Shown piece after piece: positions 2,381 through 18,837 of a stretch of 31,405 nt of DNA (the stretch's first letter is position 1; the number at the start of each line of letters is the position of its first letter). This DNA comes from Coleofasciculaceae cyanobacterium CTOTU46645 (lineage in GTDB: Bacteria; Cyanobacteriota; Cyanobacteriia; Cyanobacteriales; Coleofasciculaceae). The notes under the pieces were generated by a model that worked only from the letters and a program-made list of their open reading frames with translations, was not told the DNA's origin and searched no databases. The translations under genes and the position numbers were made by a program. The stretch covers positions 1 through 31,405 of the forward strand of contig DALYKJ010000064.1 in assembly GCA_031969375.1 (NCBI GenBank), given 5' to 3'.

Positions 2381-3142
2381 TTAATCACCCTTAACGACTG
2401 AGATTTTCATACTCATTAATAGTTCTTCTAATTGCTCAATCCGATCTAATAATCTGCGGATCTCGATCGCTTCCACATCCGGGATTTGTCCATGTTCCAG
2501 AGGATTATTTAGCTGAGGAAAAGGACAAATATTTCTCCCAGGAATTCCTACTACTGTACATTCTGATGGGACATCTTTTAAGACAATGGAACCTGCACCA
2601 ATCCGCACATTATCGCCAATGTTAATATTACCCAAAACTTTTGCCCCAGCACCGACAACAACAGAGTTACCAAGAGTCGGATGACGCTTACCACTTTCTT
2701 TGCCCGTCCCCCCCAGAGTCACGCCCTGATAAATTAGCGTGTAATCTCCCACAATTGCTGTTTCCCCAATTACTACTCCCATCCCATGATCGATAAATAC
2801 TCCCTTTCCCATCACTGCACCAGGGTGAATCTCAATACCTGTAAACAACCGTGTCAGGAAAGAAATCAGACGAGGGAAAAACGGAATTTTTTGATTGTGT
2901 AACCAGTGGGAAATCCGATGGAGTTCCAAAGCGTGAAACCCTGGATACAAACAAATAACTTCCAGCCAATTACGAGCCGCAGGATCCCGCTCAAAAATAA
3001 TCTGGAAATCAACTTTGATTGTTTGCCACCAGTTGAGAAATGAATAATGTACTGCTGCTTGAGGAGTTTTACCACCTTCAGCATACAGTTTTTCTGGTGC
3101 AATGGGTTTAACTGCTAACCAAGGGGCAAAAGTCTGTAACAT
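2381..3142 (-). CDS. cysE: Serine O-acetyltransferase (nif-associated cysE/nifP)
   Basis: 253 aa. The C-terminal left-handed beta-helix carries hexapeptide repeats (GETAIVGDYTLIYQGVTLGG...GAGAKVLGNINIGDNVRIGAGSIV). The N-terminus is SAT-like. It sits directly upstream of nifV, as in other cyanobacterial nif clusters. Confidence 0.88.
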   Translation of the reverse strand: MLQTFAPWLAVKPIAPEKLYAEGGKTPQAAVHYSFLNWWQTIKVDFQIIFERDPAARNWLEVICLYPGFHALELHRISHWLHNQKIPFFPRLISFLTRLFTGIEIHPGAVMGKGVFIDHGMGVVIGETAIVGDYTLIYQGVTLGGTGKESGKRHPTLGNSVVVGAGAKVLGNINIGDNVRIGAGSIVLKDVPSECTVVGIPGRNICPFPQLNNPLEHGQIPDVEAIEIRRLLDRIEQLEELLMSMKISVVKGD

Positions 3143-4339
3143 TGCTTTCCGGGGATTGAAAAAGCCATAATCTTTATCTCCTGCTTATATCAGATCCTTA
3201 AAACTTAGGCAGTTTACCTCACCCAGATTAAACTAATTAAAATAATTAAAACTGTACTCATGCCCTGAATTCCTTGATACTCAAGGGATTATTTTTTTTT
3301 TCGGGCTATAGGTACGAGTATTTTTGCCTATAGGGATGAGTATTTATCGACCAGGAAATCAGTATTTATGCACTCAGGCACAAATCCCCTGTTTGTAAGT
3401 ATTTGAGGCTATTTTTGTGGTTACCCTGGAGGATAAAAAGATTGTACTCATATCTGAAAACAGCGGTATCAGTGAGTTGGATCAATTTTAAAGTTTTTGT
3501 ATATCTAATTACTTTTTCCCAGTAAATGTCTTAAAGTAGAAGTAGCAAAGATAATTTTTGTGCAGAACTTGCTCTAACAACAATATCAAAATCAAATTTA
3601 TTTCTGTATCGCAAGCTACAAGTTAAATAAAATGTTAAGGAACGATCAAAAAAGACCAAAACAAACAAAAAAATGATATCTTAGATACAGAATTAAATTT
3701 TCAAAAAAGTATGGAGTTCTGAGTACAAGTCAAACTAGTTCAAAAATCATAAAAAACACCATCAAACCATTATGGAAACTGGGTTTGAGCTGAGTACAGG
3801 AATACCCAATATCCACCACATAAATACTTGTACCTCAAGGAAAAAATACTCGTACCTATAGCCCAAAAAATTTTTTCAAATTTCTTTGCTGCCCATCCCA
3901 TAAGGATTAGCGGGTTTTGAGTACAGCCTTAATCAATTTAATAAGTTTTATCCCTAGCCGTCTTTTCCCTCCTCAATTTCGCGGCTGCTATAAATTTCAT
4001 AACGCCAGATGCTTAACCCGCCAAAGGTAATCGGTATTTGGGAGTTGGTAAATTCAAACCTTACCAAAAGCCAAATAACCAATGGATTCTGGGAGAAGTT
4101 AATGGAGACAAATTGGACTAGGACATGTTTTCTATTCTTTGTGGGGGCGTTTTCCTTTGCGTTTAGATACAAAACCTTGTGTTTAAGCGATGAATTATCG
4201 CCCAAATGCAATTCCTTCTATTGCTACTCCTTTACTACTGCCACACCATCAACTCGCATTTGAAGGAACGCCCCCTCAATTTATCACTTTGAAGACACGC
4301 TCTAGCCTCGTCATCAATGAATAAACAAAATAATTACGT
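3143..4339. promoter_or_regulatory. Divergent cysE-nifV / nifB intergenic control region of 1.2 kb. It is AT-rich. A 23-bp inverted-repeat pair (3303-3325 versus 3842-3864) flanks about 540 bp. The octamer TGAGTACA / TGTACTCA is iterated at 3253, 3443, 3720, 3791 and 3918.
   Basis: No credible ORF is present; the 84/85-aa ORFs at 3954-4263 overlap each other antisense and look spurious. The repeats were read directly from the sequence. The position between divergently transcribed nif operons implies promoters and activator sites. Confidence 0.6.
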
Positions 4340-5845
4340 TTGTTCATATTTCCTGTAGCATTTACCAGTCAACTTAATCCCAGAAATTCAATGACACCTC
4401 AATCTGGAACCCTCACTAAACCAAGCACAATTCAATCTAGCGGCTGTAGTTCTTCTAGCTGTGGCACTTCTACTGAAGGAATTGATGAAAAACTAAAAAA
4501 GCGGATTGAAACCCACCCTTGTTATAGCGAAGAAGCACATCATCACTATGCCAGGATGCACGTTGCCGTTGCCCCTGCTTGCAATATTCAATGTAATTAT
4601 TGTAATCGCAAATACGACTGTGCTAACGAAAGTCGTCCCGGCGTAGTTAGTGAATTACTGACACCTGAAGAAGCAGCCCATAAAGTATTAGTAATTGCCG
4701 GGAAAATTCCCCAGATGACAGTGTTAGGAATTGCTGGACCTGGTGACCCCCTAGCAAACCCTGAAAAAACCTTCAAAACCTTTGAATTAATTGCCGACAA
4801 AGCCCCAGATATCAAACTTTGTCTATCTACTAATGGTTTGATGTTACCCGATTACGTGGATCGGATTAAGCAACTCAATGTGGATCACGTCACCATTACT
4901 ATTAATATGGTGGAACCAGAAATCGGGACACAAATCTATCCTTGGGTGCGCTATAGAAACAAGCGCTACACAGGTATTGAAGCCGCCCGGATTCTCCACG
5001 AAAGACAAATGGAAGGCTTGCAAGCACTTCAAGAAGCCGATATCCTTTGTAAAGTGAACTCAGTCATGATTCCGGGAATTAATGACCATCATTTACCCGC
5101 AGTAAATGAAGTTATTCGTTCCAAAGGGGCATTTCTCCACAATATTATGCCCCTAATCTCGGCACCAGAACATGGTACATATTTCGGTTTAAATGGTCAA
5201 CGCGGTCCAACACCAAAAGAACTGAAAACAGTGCAAGATAACTGTGCTGGCAACATGAAAATGATGCGCCACTGTCGTCAATGTCGAGCCGATGCTGTTG
5301 GTTTATTAGGTGAAGATCGCAGCCAAGAATTTACTAAAGATAAATTCTTAGAAATGGAGCCAGAGTACAATATTGAAGCACGGCAAGAAGTTCATGCTGA
5401 CATTAAGAAGTTCAAAGAAGAACTGAAATTAGCCAAAGCCAAAATCAAGCCAACTCAAAAAGTGGCTGACAGTCCTAAAATTCTCGTTGCAGTAGCCACT
5501 AAAGGCGGCGGGTTAGTGAATCAACACTTTGGTCATGCCAAAGAATTCCAAATTTACGAAGTAGATGCTAACGAAGCCAAATTTGTTGGTCATCGCAAAA
5601 TAGATCATTACTGCCAAAGCGGTTATGGCGAGGAAGCTACTTTAGAACACACGATTAAAGCCATCTCTGATTGCAAAGCGATTCTCGTTTCTAAAGTAGG
5701 CGAATGTCCCAAAGCAGATTTACAAGCAGCGGGTTTAATTGTGGTAGAAGCTTACGACGTAATTGAGAAAGTTGCCCGGGCATTTTATGACCTCCATATT
5801 CTCAAAACAGCTAATCCCATTCCTGAGATTGTCGGTTGTTTGTAA
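4340..5845 (+). CDS. nifB: FeMo-cofactor biosynthesis radical-SAM protein NifB, with the C-terminal NifX/NafY-like domain. The likely true start is the ATG at 4391 (MTPQSG...).
   Basis: The radical-SAM cluster motif [14 protein letters not shown] and the motifs [29 protein letters not shown] and [10 protein letters not shown] are present. The C-terminal about 100 aa resemble the dinitrogenase FeMo-cofactor-binding domain. Confidence 0.93.
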
Positions 5846-5881
5846 TTAACAAGTATTGTTCATTGGCATGAGGTATAGCAT

Positions 5882-5904
5882 TGCTAACTGCTAATTGCTA
5901 ATTG
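5882..5904. repeat. STRR-like heptamer tandem repeat (TGCTAAC/TGCTAAT, 3 units)
   Basis: Direct reading of the nifB-nifS spacer. Confidence 0.6.
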
Positions 5905-5996
5905 TGAATGGTGTACCTCATCCAATTGAAGATTCCTTACTAATTTCCAATTCTCTATTCCCTAGCCCTTCCCGCTGTAAATCTGAGGATAAGATC

Positions 5997-7205
5997 GTGT
6001 CAAATTGTATTTACCTAGACAACAACGCCACAACCAAAGTAGATCCCATAGTATTGGAAGCAATGCTACCCTACTTAACCGAAAATTATGGTAATCCCTC
6101 CAGTATGCACACCTTTGGAGGAAGAGTAGGAAAAGCAGTCAAACAAGCCAGAGAACAAGTAGCAGGTTTGTTAGGTGCCGATGATGTAGAAATTATCTTT
6201 ACCAGTTGCGGCAGTGAAAGCAATAATACAGCCATTAGAGCTGCATTAGCTGCCCAACCAAATAAACGACATATTATTACCACTCAAGTCGAACACGCCT
6301 CTGTCACTAATCTTTGCAAACATTTAGAAAAACAAGGTTACACAGTTACTTATCTATCTGTTAACCGTCAGGGGCAATTAGATTTAATGGAATTGGAAGC
6401 AGCATTAACTGGAAACACAGCCTTAGTTTCCACCATGTATGCTAACAACGAAACCGGGACAATTTTCCCCATCGAACAAATCGGTTCCTTGGCTAAAGAA
6501 TATGGTGCAACTTTCCACGTTGATGCAGTTCAAGCCGTAGGTAAAGTTCCTCTCAATATGAAGAACAGTACCATTGACTTACTAACTCTATCCGGACATA
6601 AATTACACGCCCCTAAAGGTATTGGTGCTTTATATGTCCGCAGAGGTTTCCACTTCCGTCCATTACTAATAGGTGGACATCAGGAACGGGGACGGAGAGC
6701 TGGAACCGAAAATGTACCAGGAATAATTGCTTTAGGGAAAGCCGCTGAACTCGAATTATTACACATACCAGAAGCAACAAAACGGCAAAATCAATTAAGA
6801 AATCGCCTAGAACAAAACCTCCTCCTGAATATTCCTGATTGTGAAGTAAATGGCGACACAGCCCATCGCTTACCTAACACTACTAATATTGGCTTTAAAT
6901 ACATTGAAGGTGAAGCAATTTTACTTTCATTAGACAAATACGGAATTTGCGCTTCTTCTGGTTCCGCTTGCACTTCTGGATCTTTAGAACCCTCTCACGT
7001 TTTACGTGCCATGGGCTTACCCTATACAATCCTTCACGGTTCCATTCGATTCAGTCTTAGCCGTTACACCACTGATGCGGAAATAGATCTAATTTTAACT
7101 GTAATGCCAGGAATTATCGAACGTCTCCGTGCCCTTTCACCCTTCAACAATGACAATGCTGAATGGTTACAAGATAGAGAAGAAGCTGTAGCAGTTAGCA
7201 GATAA
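5997..7205 (+). CDS. nifS: Cysteine desulfurase NifS (class V aminotransferase). Probable GTG start at 5997; the ORF is open from 5895.
   Basis: CIYLDNNATTKVDP, the PLP-lysine region SGHKLHAPKGIGALYVR, and SSGSACTSGSLEPSHVL containing the active-site Cys. The N-terminal 34 codons of the open frame are unconserved. AGGATAAG lies 8 nt before the GTG. Confidence 0.9.
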   Translation: MSNCIYLDNNATTKVDPIVLEAMLPYLTENYGNPSSMHTFGGRVGKAVKQAREQVAGLLGADDVEIIFTSCGSESNNTAIRAALAAQPNKRHIITTQVEHASVTNLCKHLEKQGYTVTYLSVNRQGQLDLMELEAALTGNTALVSTMYANNETGTIFPIEQIGSLAKEYGATFHVDAVQAVGKVPLNMKNSTIDLLTLSGHKLHAPKGIGALYVRRGFHFRPLLIGGHQERGRRAGTENVPGIIALGKAAELELLHIPEATKRQNQLRNRLEQNLLLNIPDCEVNGDTAHRLPNTTNIGFKYIEGEAILLSLDKYGICASSGSACTSGSLEPSHVLRAMGLPYTILHGSIRFSLSRYTTDAEIDLILTVMPGIIERLRALSPFNNDNAEWLQDREEAVAVSR

Positions 7206-7224: not shown

Positions 7225-7280
7225 CTGAACTCCGAATTCCGAACTCCGAACTCTGAACTCCGAACTCCGAACTCCCAATT
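7225..7280. repeat. STRR heptamer tandem repeat (CCGAACT/CTGAACT family, 8 units)
   Basis: ctgaact ccgaatt ccgaact ccgaact ctgaact ccgaact ccgaact cccaatt, read directly between nifS and nifU. Confidence 0.85.
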
Positions 7281-13312: not shown

Positions 13313-13354
13313 TTGTCACCTGTCAACTGTCACCTGTCAACTGTCACCTATCAC
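13313..13354. repeat. STRR heptamer repeat (CTGTCAA/CTGTCAC, 6 units) immediately upstream of nifE
   Basis: ttgtcac ctgtcaa ctgtcac ctgtcaa ctgtcac ctatcac. The same heptamer family recurs at 26727-26768 and 31379-31405. Confidence 0.85.
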
Positions 13355-16175: not shown

Positions 16176-16595
16176 ATGAGAATTGCCTTCACTACTAGCG
16201 ATAACGTTCACATCAATGCCCACTTTGGTTGGGCAAAAAAGATAGATGTCTATGAAGTTTCCACCGAGGGCTATCAATTCTTAAAAACCCTCAAATTTGA
16301 TGGAGATCTCAAAGAAGATGGTAATGAGGATAAACTTTTACCCAAAATTGAAGCCCTCTACGACTGCACCATTGTTTATGTTTCTGCCATTGGAGGTAGT
16401 GCCGCTGCCCGTTTAATTAAAAAACGGATTACCCCTGTTAAGGCACAATCTGAGGAACAAGAAATTACCGATGTTCTCACTAAATTAGTTGCTACCTTAA
16501 ATGGAAATCCTCCTCCTTGGTTGAGGAAAGTCCTGCAACAACAACAACAGTCCACATTTTTAGATCGATTAGAAGAGGAAGCTACCCCTGTATGA
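16176..16595 (+). CDS. nifX: NifX (FeMo-cofactor carrier, NifX/NafY family)
   Basis: 139 aa starting MRIAFTTSDNVHINAHFGWAKKIDVYEV, which is the family motif. It follows nifN. Confidence 0.9.
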   Translation: MRIAFTTSDNVHINAHFGWAKKIDVYEVSTEGYQFLKTLKFDGDLKEDGNEDKLLPKIEALYDCTIVYVSAIGGSAAARLIKKRITPVKAQSEEQEITDVLTKLVATLNGNPPPWLRKVLQQQQQSTFLDRLEEEATPV

Positions 16596-17068
16596 CTACC
16601 ACTCAAACTATTGCTGAACCCACTAAGCTAGAAATTCTGGAACATCCTTTTATTCAGGAAGTAATTCGCCAAATTCGGGCAGAAGATTCCTATGGCTTTT
16701 ACCGTAATTGGACAGATGAATTAATCCTAAAACCATTCATTGTTAGTCGGGAAGCCAAACGGAAAATCTCCGTTGATGGTGATGTGGAACCGAATACCAA
16801 GGGAAGAATCCAGTTATTTTATCGCGCCATTGCCGCACAAGTGGAAAAAGAAACTGGGTTACTTTCCCAAGTAGTAATTGATTTAAGTCACGAAGGCTTT
16901 GGTTGGGCGTTAGTTTTCTCTGGTCGTCTTTTACTAGTGGCGAGAACCTTACGAGATGCACAACGGTTTGGTTTTGATTCCTTTGAAAAATTAGCTGCTG
17001 AAGGGGAAAAGCTAACTAAATCTGGTATTGATTTAGCCAAACGCTATCCTGACATTGGCGGACTTTAA
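16592..17068 (+). CDS. NifX-associated nitrogen-fixation protein (DUF269 family). Its start overlaps the nifX stop (ATGA).
   Basis: The ORF is open from 16517. An in-frame ATG at 16592 overlaps the nifX TGA, which is a classic sign of translational coupling. This is the conserved position after nifX in cyanobacterial clusters. Confidence 0.75.
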   Translation: MTTTQTIAEPTKLEILEHPFIQEVIRQIRAEDSYGFYRNWTDELILKPFIVSREAKRKISVDGDVEPNTKGRIQLFYRAIAAQVEKETGLLSQVVIDLSHEGFGWALVFSGRLLLVARTLRDAQRFGFDSFEKLAAEGEKLTKSGIDLAKRYPDIGGL

Positions 17069-17083
17069 TTCAGTAGTTAATGG

Positions 17084-17389
17084 AAGTTACTAGTTACAAA
17101 TATTGACGGTTAGATCCCCCCTAGCCCCCCTTAATAAGGGGGGAATTAGACTCAATTTTCTCCTTCTTAATAAGGGTACAAAATGAAGTCAAAATCCTCT
17201 TTTTGAAGGTAAGAAATAGACTAAAAGCCCCCTTATTAAGGGGTGTAACTGGACTCAAAGTCCCCCTTATTAGGGGGTGTAACTGGACTCAAAGTCTCGC
17301 TTATTAGGGGGTGTAACTGGACTCAAAGTCCCCCTTATTAAGGGGGATTTAGGGGGATCAAAAATATCTAAACTCACAACTAGCAACTT
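17084..17389. mobile_element. MITE-like element, copy B, about 306 bp. It has the same termini as copy A and carries an internal array of three 34-bp tandem units (CCCCTTATTAGGGGGTGTAACTGGACTCAAAGTC).
   Basis: Terminal sequences AAGTTACTAGTTACAAATATTGACGGTTAGATCCCCCC ... GGGGGATC..AACTAGCAACTT, read directly. It is inserted between the DUF269 and DUF683 genes inside the nif operon. Confidence 0.8.
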
Positions 17390-18006: not shown

Positions 18007-18837
18007 GTGCTACAACTCACCGCCAAAGAATTAGAACGCTACCGTCGCCAAATTATGCTATCAGGTTTTGGAGAAGCGGGGCAAAAACGACTCAAATCAT
18101 CCACTATATTAGTGACAGGTGTTGGTGGTTTAGGTGGCACTGCTGCACTTTATTTAGCTGTTGCAGGTGTGGGGCGATTAATCCTAGTTAGAGGCGGTGA
18201 ATTGCGCCTAGATGACATGAATCGTCAGATTTTAATGACTGACGATTGGGTGGGTAAACCGAGAGTTTTTAAAGCTAAAGAAACTCTGGAGGAAATTAAT
18301 CCAGATGTCCAAATTGATGCTATCTGTGAATATGTAACTCCTGAAAATGTTGACGCTTTAGTACAATCTGCCGATCTAGTCCTTGACTGTGCCCATAATT
18401 TCATTGAACGGGATTTGTTAAATGTGGCTTGTGTCCGCTGGAATAAACCAATGGTGGAAGCAGCGATGAACGATATGGAGGCATATTTAACCACAATTGT
18501 TCCGGGACAAACGCCTTGTTTATCCTGTATTTTCCCGGAAAAACCAGATTGGGATAAGCGCGGCTTTGGGGTTTTAGGCGCAGTGTCGGGAACTCTTGCT
18601 TGTTTGACAGCTTTAGAGGCAATTAAGTTAATAACTGGTATTGGCAAACCGCTATTATCTCAATTGCTAACCATGGATTTAGCCACTTTTGATTTTGCGA
18701 AACGTCGCCCTTACCACGATCCTAATTGTCCAGTTTGTGGCGATAAATATCGAGAGATATTGGAAAAGAATGTGGGTTCAGATTCCGTATTTTCTAGCAC
18801 TAAAGTGCTTACTACGAACTTTCCCATAAGTTTGTAG
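18007..18837 (+). CDS. hesA: HesA (MoeB/ThiF-type E1-like adenylyltransferase). GTG start.
   Basis: 276 aa. The nucleotide-binding motif VTGVGGLGGTAALYLAVAGVGRL and the CxxC pairs (CLSC, CPVCG) are present. The SD AGGAGAAATAAG precedes the GTG. It lies after nifW as in Anabaena. Confidence 0.9.
   Translation: MLQLTAKELERYRRQIMLSGFGEAGQKRLKSSTILVTGVGGLGGTAALYLAVAGVGRLILVRGGELRLDDMNRQILMTDDWVGKPRVFKAKETLEEINPDVQIDAICEYVTPENVDALVQSADLVLDCAHNFIERDLLNVACVRWNKPMVEAAMNDMEAYLTTIVPGQTPCLSCIFPEKPDWDKRGFGVLGAVSGTLACLTALEAIKLITGIGKPLLSQLLTMDLATFDFAKRRPYHDPNCPVCGDKYREILEKNVGSDSVFSSTKVLTTNFPISL

Follow-up and report, generated by a model that had tools for sequence, protein, structure and literature searches.

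What occupies the DNA between two divergently transcribed nitrogen fixation genes when it is far longer than a pair of promoters would need? The question is raised by contig DALYKJ010000064.1 of the uncultured Coleofasciculaceae cyanobacterium CTOTU46645, analysed here as a single stretch of 31,405 nucleotides (the 31.4-kb window), within which the divergent start codons of cysE and nifB are separated by a 1,248-bp spacer. The original prediction for this spacer described an octamer present five times in both orientations and a 23-bp inverted repeat bracketing an AT-rich segment of ~560 bp. It proposed either a miniature inverted-repeat transposable element (MITE) inserted in the nifB leader, or an array of sites for a CnfR/PatB-type activator with a DNA-looping inverted repeat. 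The array of activator sites proves to have been essentially the right choice, as the boxes and arms correspond to the published motifs 1A–1C, 2A and 2B, in the order and spacing seen elsewhere. The spacer is very probably the bidirectional, activator-dependent control region, of the CnfR type, of a canonical nif cluster. To judge by the motifs and their layout, its orthologues are the DNA between nifB and nifP in Leptolyngbya boryana and that between nifB2 and nifZ2 in Anabaena variabilis. As such it belongs to a kind of control region that has already been described, real and functional but ordinary, and not mobile.

The octamer TGAGTACA has exact matches at 3253 and 3443 on the minus strand and at 3720, 3791 and 3918 on the plus strand, exactly where it had been placed. 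These are the only five in the 31.4 kb and all fall within the spacer, against 0.70 expected, a count reached in 0/100 shuffles. A sixth box with one mismatch, TGAGTGCA, lies on the minus strand at 3369–3376, so that the strand switches from minus for every box of the left half to plus for every box of the right half. The 23-bp inverted repeat is equally real: GGGCTATAGGTACGAGTATTTTT occurs at 3303–3325 on the plus strand and at 3842–3864 on the minus strand with 0 mismatches between the arms, and it has no match elsewhere in the window at three or fewer mismatches. The arms are longer than had been claimed, as a repeat finder extends them to 51 nt (3297–3347 and 3820–3870) at 86% complementarity, and a second, outer inverted-repeat pair is found at 3226–3260 and 3918–3952. 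The interior is AT-rich, as described (GC 0.255–0.30 over 3400–3799), and this non-coding part of the bracketed segment contains no open reading frame (ORF) with a family match.

Each arm of the inverted repeat harbours a 22-bp tandem duplication, the units of which constitute motif 2: AAATACTTGTACC at 3822 and AAATACTCGTACC at 3844, 22 bp apart, mirrored at 3333 and 3311. In the module alignment these units pair with their counterparts in L. boryana and A. variabilis. Motif 2 has four matches in the window, all in the spacer, where 0.65 would be expected, and the count is reached in 0/100 shuffles. When 3200–3590 is aligned to the reverse complement of 3580–3975, ~230 bp per side are found to be related, with three octamer positions on each side. 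The mirror symmetry spans 3184–3995 around a centre near 3589, with a promoter-like extended -10 at both ends. The inverted repeat thus arises from one promoter module present twice in mirror orientation. The 23-bp repeat itself exists because motif 2B, which reads AAAAATACTCGTACC-N2-TAGCCC in this clade according to an 18-module alignment, occurs once in each of the oppositely facing modules. The 560-bp bracketed segment is consequently not a discrete unit, being the gap between two copies of one motif.

Motifs of this type have a published background. According to later papers, three repeated TGAGTACA(A) motifs, 1A–1C, occur with 2A and 2B ahead of four A. variabilis genes (nifB1, nifB2, nifZ2 and nifP) and also in the nifB-nifP region of L. 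boryana, motifs 2A and 2B being located between 1B and 1C. Without 1A or 1B, nifB1 transcription in A. variabilis reportedly falls by half. Changes to 2A or 2B (IV–V and VI–VII in the L. boryana nomenclature) are reported to abolish CnfR activation in L. boryana, and changes to 1B to have little effect there (Tsujimoto 2016, via a citing paper). CnfR is described as an Fe-S (iron–sulphur) protein with an XRE-type helix-turn-helix (HTH) that binds fragments with such regions in vitro, and on its activation transcription is said to diverge from the nifB-nifP spacer. That CnfR binds such regions and is needed for their activity is known for Nostoc 7120, A. variabilis and L. boryana only, and in a 2026 preprint the conserved cis elements serve as a hallmark of canonical nif clusters. 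A literature search for TGAGTACA returned, among cyanobacterial work, only a 2025 preprint (bioRxiv 10.1101/2025.04.01.646610).

The motifs were mapped in nine spacers, extended with two further sequences (L015 and L017), and 18 modules were aligned, 10 from the nifB side and 8 from the nifP/nifZ side. The relatives include a 7.6-Mb contig (L007/L016) and a metagenome contig (L008), both with NifB proteins 91% identical to that of the window, and Oscillatoriales cyanobacterium USR001 (L015). More distant sequences are the A. variabilis nif2 cluster (L010), Allocoleopsis franciscana (L012), Cyanothece PCC 7425 (L013), Chroococcidiopsis TS-821 (L014), a metagenome contig (L011) and a Leptolyngbya (L009) whose NifB is the one assigned by NCBI to strains of the L. 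boryana group, and which stands for the L. boryana sequence here. A last metagenome contig (L017) covers cysE and its upstream module. The two modules of the window are made up as follows, from the cysE side to the nifB side, with invariance counted among three close relatives.

3184–3192, minus strand: extended -10, TGATATAAG, of the predicted cysE/nifP promoter, with a start predicted near 3177, ~35 nt before the ATG; 9/9 positions invariant.
3226–3260, minus strand: box 1C' (TGAGTACA at 3253–3260) and its conserved TTAAT-rich 3' flank, an outer inverted-repeat arm; box 8/8 and flank 20/27 invariant.
3287–3301, no strand: T-run (A/T tract) in the interval from motif 2B' to box 1C', read from the sequence.
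3303–3347, minus strand: motifs 2B' (3303–3325) and 2A' (3326–3347), the left arm as first noticed, a 22-bp tandem pair of AAATACTCGTACC-type units with 0 and 2 mismatches to AAATACTCGTACC; 2B' 20/23 invariant.
3369–3376, minus strand: box 1B', degenerate (TGAGTGCA), perfect in the 7.6-Mb contig and in USR001.
3443–3450, minus strand: box 1A' (TGAGTACA), 74 bp from 1B', likewise in L011, Allocoleopsis and Chroococcidiopsis.
3720–3727, plus strand: box 1A (TGAGTACA) of the nifB module; 8/8 invariant.
3791–3798, plus strand: box 1B (TGAGTACA), 71 bp past 1A.
3820–3864, plus strand: motifs 2A (3820–3841) and 2B (3842–3864), the right arm as first noticed; 2B 22/23 invariant.
3865–3885, no strand: A6T6 tract (AAAAAATTTTTTCAAATTTC) in the interval from motif 2B to box 1C, a tract also present in A. 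variabilis nif2.
3918–3952, plus strand: box 1C (3918–3925) and its conserved TTAAT-rich flank, an outer inverted-repeat arm; 127 bp past 1B, as in A. variabilis nif2.
3986–3995, plus strand: extended -10, TGCTATAAAT, of the predicted nifB promoter, with a start predicted near 4002; 12/12 invariant.

The spacer therefore displays what characterises a CnfR-dependent region, namely three same-orientation TGAGTACA boxes per side (one of those on the cysE side with 1 mismatch), tandem motif-2 units, the spacing of these elements and a position between nifB and cysE. By analogy with the L. boryana region, 3820–3864 is likely to be the CnfR-dependent element.

This arrangement is shared widely. The order of the boxes and their near-identical spacing recur in 11/11 other nifB or cysE spacers examined, including those of L. 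boryana, A. variabilis nif2, Allocoleopsis and Chroococcidiopsis. Over the 10 nifB-side modules, 1A and 1B are always separated by 70–73 bp, 1B and 1C by 116–117 or 126–127 bp, and 1C and the -10 by 66–68 bp; the three values are 71/127/68 in the window, 71/127/66 in A. variabilis nif2 and 71/116/68 in L. boryana. An A/T tract is found at the corresponding place in all 18 aligned modules. A mirrored copy facing the divergent gene is present in 8/8 complete divergent spacers, though A. variabilis nif2 has a shortened version and L. boryana a looser one, while nifB of Cyanothece PCC 7425, which is without a divergent nif partner, has the nifB-side module only, with boxes on the plus strand alone. 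The remark that the spacer far exceeds what two promoters need describes no peculiarity of this genome, since the divergent nifB spacer measures 0.94–1.26 kb in the 8 complete spacers.

Within the spacer, conservation is concentrated on the motifs. In the three-species alignment 49% of all columns are invariant, or 47% if the annotated features are set aside, whereas no position varies in boxes 1A, 1B, 1C and 1C' or in either -10 element. Counting all six boxes, 5/6 are invariant in the close relatives, these being the five exact ones; for motif 2B the invariant share is 96% on the nifB side and 87% on the cysE side. In the close clade (the window, L007, L008 and L015) the nifB-side modules are 70–76% identical to one another and the cysE-side modules 71–76%, whereas the two modules of one genome are only 51–57% identical, with a value of 52% in the window. 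The modules resemble their same-side orthologues more than their partner in the same genome, and therefore the duplication is old and the arms are not being homogenised. Concerted evolution of the arms, which would account for their perfect 23-bp match, was considered and rejected, as the modules group by side and not by genome and motif 2B is nearly as well kept between species (22/23) as between arms. On this comparative evidence, the perfect match between the 23-bp arms reflects selection on the motif.

The predicted promoters at the two ends of the symmetry resemble those described for these genes. For the starts of nifB1 and nifB2, an extended -10 is reported that is not accompanied by a -35. 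In keeping with the spacings above, TGnTATAA is found 66–68 bp past box 1C in 10/10 nifB modules, and TTATA[N]CA lies 68 bp from box 1C' in 7/8 nifP/nifZ-side modules; exactly 68 bp separate box 1C from the TG of the -10 in either module of the window. A scan of the spacer for sigma-70 -35/-10 pairs gave 0 sites against 4.1 expected. The predicted cysE start, at about -35, compares with an A. variabilis nifP start reported as mapped at -33/-34. On the nifB side the motifs lie at -473 to -671 from the ATG, and at about -80 to -280 from the predicted start. A terminator-like hairpin at 3268–3290 was treated as chance; it seems to be lineage-specific, as its arms are not kept in USR001 or the 7.6-Mb contig.

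From the literature on the orthologous regions a mechanism can be proposed. The functional unit would be one module of ~275 bp, consisting of 1A (TGAGTACA), an interval of ~71 bp, 1B, two 22-bp motif-2 units with a AAATACTCGTACC core, an A/T tract, 1C, a further 68 bp and TGnTATAA with no -35. Two such modules would stand in mirror orientation, one facing nifB and the other facing cysE (nifP). When oxygen is low and nitrogen limiting, CnfR, the Fe-S/HTH activator, would bind the upstream motifs. Motif 2 would be the indispensable part, as in L. boryana, and the TGAGTACA boxes would boost expression, as they do for nifB1 in A. variabilis. Binding of CnfR would turn on both of the -35-less promoters, and the outcome would be coordinated divergent transcription of nifB-nifS-nifU-nifHDK... 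in one direction and cysE-nifV-nifZ-nifT in the other. For this spacer we infer the binding of CnfR, the transcription starts and any role of the A/T tract by analogy; the motifs with their statistics, conservation, spacing, mirror layout and single-copy status are direct observations.

Several points weigh against assigning the spacer to CnfR. No cnfR gene is present in the 31-kb window, as the scanned ORFs give no Fe-S/HTH regulator or CnfR-like match. The motifs were identified from later work citing Tsujimoto 2016 and Vernon 2017 and from a reading of the L. boryana and A. variabilis sequences. The published effects of single motifs vary by gene and species. Moreover, the distances of the motifs from the ATG fit the published description better than those from the predicted start, such that the assigned nifB -10 could be wrong.

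The AT-rich centre between the two modules contains a further pair of conserved elements that go beyond the published motifs and face outward, the left one (TTCTGTATC with its NtcA-type box) toward cysE and the right one toward nifB.

3499–3620, no strand: left half of the AT-rich centre, with GTA-N8-TAC (NtcA-type) boxes at 3499–3512 and 3606–3619 and TTCTGTATC at 3602–3610; function putative.
3674–3692, plus strand: right central element, extended -10-like TGATATCTT-A-GATACAGAA, facing nifB; function putative.

The NtcA-type box on the right of the first element, TGTATCGCAAGCTACA, is a perfect TGTA-N8-TACA at 3605–3620, with two matches in the window against 0.38 expected. TTTTTGTATAT and TCTGTATC are invariant blocks across the three relatives. 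TTCTGTATC with its overlapping GTA-N8-TAC (3602–3620) has a counterpart in 6/9 spacers scanned, and is absent in L011, Allocoleopsis and Cyanothece PCC 7425; the other box (3499–3512) has a positional counterpart in the 7.6-Mb contig only. In an NtcA-activated promoter such a box stands about 22 nt upstream of a TAN3T -10; by eye alone, a TATTGT can be seen on the minus strand 19 nt from an NtcA-type box. Box 1A is preceded in 10/10 nifB-side spacers, at a distance of 36–158 bp, by a 9-mer of the GATACAGAA type that deviates at no more than one position; in the eight spacers where the context was read, TGnTAnnTT stands before this 9-mer. The element at 3674–3692 forms a 17-nt inverted repeat with 3594–3610. 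Tentatively, this central pair may represent two extra distal promoters or an NtcA input in addition to motifs 1 and 2, an idea that is on balance doubtful. If it is true, transcription from the central elements would cross the CnfR sites and add a nitrogen-status layer to nif control.

It has also to be asked whether the inverted repeat has a function of its own as a loop, in which an activator bound at the two motif-2 pairs, ~520 bp apart, would loop out the AT-rich centre as a requirement of regulation. The motif-2 pairs are identical over 23 bp and mirror-oriented, and the very AT-rich centre would be flexible. The distance between 1B and 1C, moreover, takes only two values in the 18 aligned modules, 116–117 or 126–128 bp, which differ by about one helical turn and suggest a face-of-helix constraint; even two modules of one genome can differ, as in the window, whose cysE module has 116 bp and whose nifB module has 127 bp. 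However, the module also stands alone at nifB of Cyanothece PCC 7425, the motifs of A. variabilis nifB1 and nifP are carried at separate loci, and a 484-bp truncated nifB promoter is reported to have served as a working part in L. boryana constructs. The separation of the motif-2 sets varies by species and the arms are not kept identical, the two copies of motif 2B in the 7.6-Mb contig differing at 4/23 positions. Looping of this kind is improbable, and this part of the original proposal gained no support, since two opposed modules suffice to give the repeat.

That the 560-bp segment, or a wider one of 730 bp, is a non-autonomous transposable element (a MITE or foldback element) inserted into the DNA separating nifB from cysE is very improbable. 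The appeal of this reading lies in the perfect, terminal-looking 23-bp inverted repeats, part of arms of 51 nt at 86%, and in the AT-rich non-coding interior that they flank, features that cyanobacterial MITEs share. Yet the bracketed segment is collinear and orthologous in the relatives with 91% identical NifB (in L008 as far as the contig reaches) and in USR001, hence there is no indel, and it is present in more distant genera too. The mirrored layout recurs in L. boryana, A. variabilis nif2, Allocoleopsis and Chroococcidiopsis, and therefore no single-site insertion could explain it. Many copies of the 23-bp ends would be a sign of a MITE, but no second copy of the spacer or its arms exists within the window. 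The arm 20-mer GGCTAKAGGTACGAGTATTT has only two matches in a collection of one genome per species (USR001 and, once, the 7.6-Mb contig) and one in metagenomes, and all three lie in nifB/cysE spacers, as judged by BLAST against the window. There is no target-site duplication either, as the left flank (...TTTTTTTTTTC) and the right flank (AAAAAATTTTTTC...) prolong the inverted repeat instead of forming a direct one. The modules group with their same-side orthologues and not with each other, and the segment precedes the predicted nifB promoter, outside the leader in which the insertion had been placed. Unlike a MITE, then, the segment is single-copy, orthologous across genera and devoid of a target-site duplication, and its 'ends' are regulatory motifs.

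That the spacer is neutral AT-rich DNA with repeats arising by chance or slippage, for which the wealth of short tandem repeats in the intergenic DNA of the window might speak, is hardly credible, as the observed motif counts were reached in none of the 100 shuffles, the motifs are invariant across genera while their flanks diverge, and published mutagenesis shows that the motifs matter.

With the spacer read as a CnfR-type control region, its likeness to the two characterised systems can be drawn more closely. The nifB-nifP region of L. boryana has the divergent genes ~1.25 kb apart and outward TGAGTACA boxes on both sides, motif-2 units between 1B and 1C, an TGCTATAA extended -10 at 68 bp past 1C and an GATACAGA-type central element. 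It differs in its distance of 116 bp between 1B and 1C, as opposed to 127 bp in the window, in a mismatch in the nifB-side box 1B and in a looser nifP-side arm. Its leftward operon is nifP-orf84-dpsA-nifENX..., as compared with cysE-nifV-nifZ-nifT in the window. The A. variabilis nifB2-nifZ2, nifB1 and nifP promoters (Vernon et al. 2017; bioRxiv 10.1101/2025.04.01.646610) share with the window an identical octamer, distances of 71 and 127 bp along 1A-1B-1C, the AAATACTCGTACC units, the AAAAAATTTTTTCAAATTTC tract and an GGCTGCTATAAAT -10. In A. variabilis nif2, however, the left partner is nifZ2T2 and its module is shortened, lacking a clear 1B' and having just 42 bp between 1C' and the -10. 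In addition, nifP is at a separate locus, and the organism has paralogous activators, CnfR1 and CnfR2, with heterocyst specificity.

A broader parallel is found in the Proteobacteria, where NifA acts at upstream activator sequences, TGT-N10-ACA, in combination with sigma-54 promoters (-24/-12). The logic is alike: the activator responds to oxygen and nitrogen, its sites are repeated ahead of nif operons, in many cases within divergent spacers, and the DNA bends between these sites and the promoter. The sequences and the activator family are nevertheless unrelated, and the promoter here is of the extended -10 type, which makes this an analogy and not a case of membership.

The genes on either side of the spacer are as follows.

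2381–3142, minus strand: cysE (nifP), serine O-acetyltransferase (TIGR01172 cysE, 7e-74), heading the leftward cysE-nifV-nifZ-nifT operon.
4391–5845, plus strand: nifB (TIGR01290 nifB, 2e-200).

Family profile matches give a canonical cyanobacterial nif order, with cysE followed leftward by nifV (TIGR02660, 2e-159) and nifB followed rightward by nifS, and nifZ, nifT, nifU and nifH are called on contigs with an identical CysE protein. The NifB protein is 100% identical to that of 'Cyanobacteria bacterium UBA11149', and the next nearest NifB proteins are 91% identical. The gap between nifB and nifS (5845–6000) is only ~150 bp and free of fdxN in the window, as it is in the 7.6-Mb contig and in Allocoleopsis; fdxN follows nifB in L. 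boryana, and a ferredoxin gene occupies this position in L011 and Chroococcidiopsis as well.

Between the promoter and the nifB start codon lies the following feature.

3996–4390, plus strand: predicted nifB 5' leader, ~389 nt, with conserved blocks at 3996–4104 and roughly 4318–4390.

This predicted leader is the longest of ten compared, because of an insert of ~200 bp at about 4119–4317 that has 2% invariant columns and is absent from the three closest relatives (L007, L008 and L015). The insert has no further copy within the window. It carries a small inverted repeat (4139–4151 and 4267–4279), and a 28-nt piece of it, 4182–4209, matches the 7.6-Mb contig at L007:4357-4384, downstream of nifT, at 93%. 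Two small ORFs, 4009–4263 on the plus strand and 3954–4211 on the minus strand, were rejected as genes, as they have no Pfam or NCBIfam match and overlie the non-conserved insert. An Rfam scan of 3100–4450 at E up to 1 gave no match, so that neither the spacer nor the leader holds a riboswitch or small RNA of a known family.

Elsewhere in the window, the larger non-nif ORFs encode an enolase, a hybrid response-regulator histidine kinase, a Ca/Na antiporter, a methyltransferase, a HesA/MoeB-type protein and a homologue of the major vault protein (MVP), and one 415-aa ORF outside the nif genes matched no family. The vault homologue is full-length, an 881-aa ORF at 28641–31286 on the plus strand that adjoins the enolase gene ~7 kb beyond the nif cluster. 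Its Pfam matches are to the Vault repeats (2.6e-68) and MVP_shoulder (1.1e-52), and against solved eukaryotic MVP structures it gives an E-value of 8e-294 across residues 13–876. Bacterial and cyanobacterial MVP homologues are already described (bioRxiv 10.1101/872010). The vault homologue beside enolase is thus a known oddity, though the similarity is striking.

The intergenic DNA contains repeats of other kinds. A 34-bp tandem repeat at 17219–17345 (3.8 copies, 91% match) has a palindromic CCCCCTTATTAAGGGGG core and sits between the ORF at 16517–17068 and small ORFs preceding the HesA/MoeB-type gene (18007–18837), with related palindromes at 17115–17150. It is probably the other repeat element to which the original prediction alluded. 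Heptamer tandem repeats, among them GAACTCC, TGTCACC, AATGGGG and CTGTCAA, are numerous in intergenic gaps, for example at 7227–7275, 13314–13354, 24545–24591 and 26728–26768; repeats of this kind are a usual feature of filamentous cyanobacteria, in which they are known as short tandemly repeated sequences.

For the specialist, the additions made here are modest and open no new question: the strict spacings, the two distances between 1B and 1C and a mirror layout that is exact to the nucleotide, followed over 18 modules. For the organism, an uncultured cyanobacterium, the spacer would be the place where its nif cluster is switched on, and the motif map could serve reporter or synthetic-biology work. 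It is likely that this cyanobacterium controls nitrogenase as Leptolyngbya and Anabaena do, responding to low oxygen and nitrogen limitation via CnfR.

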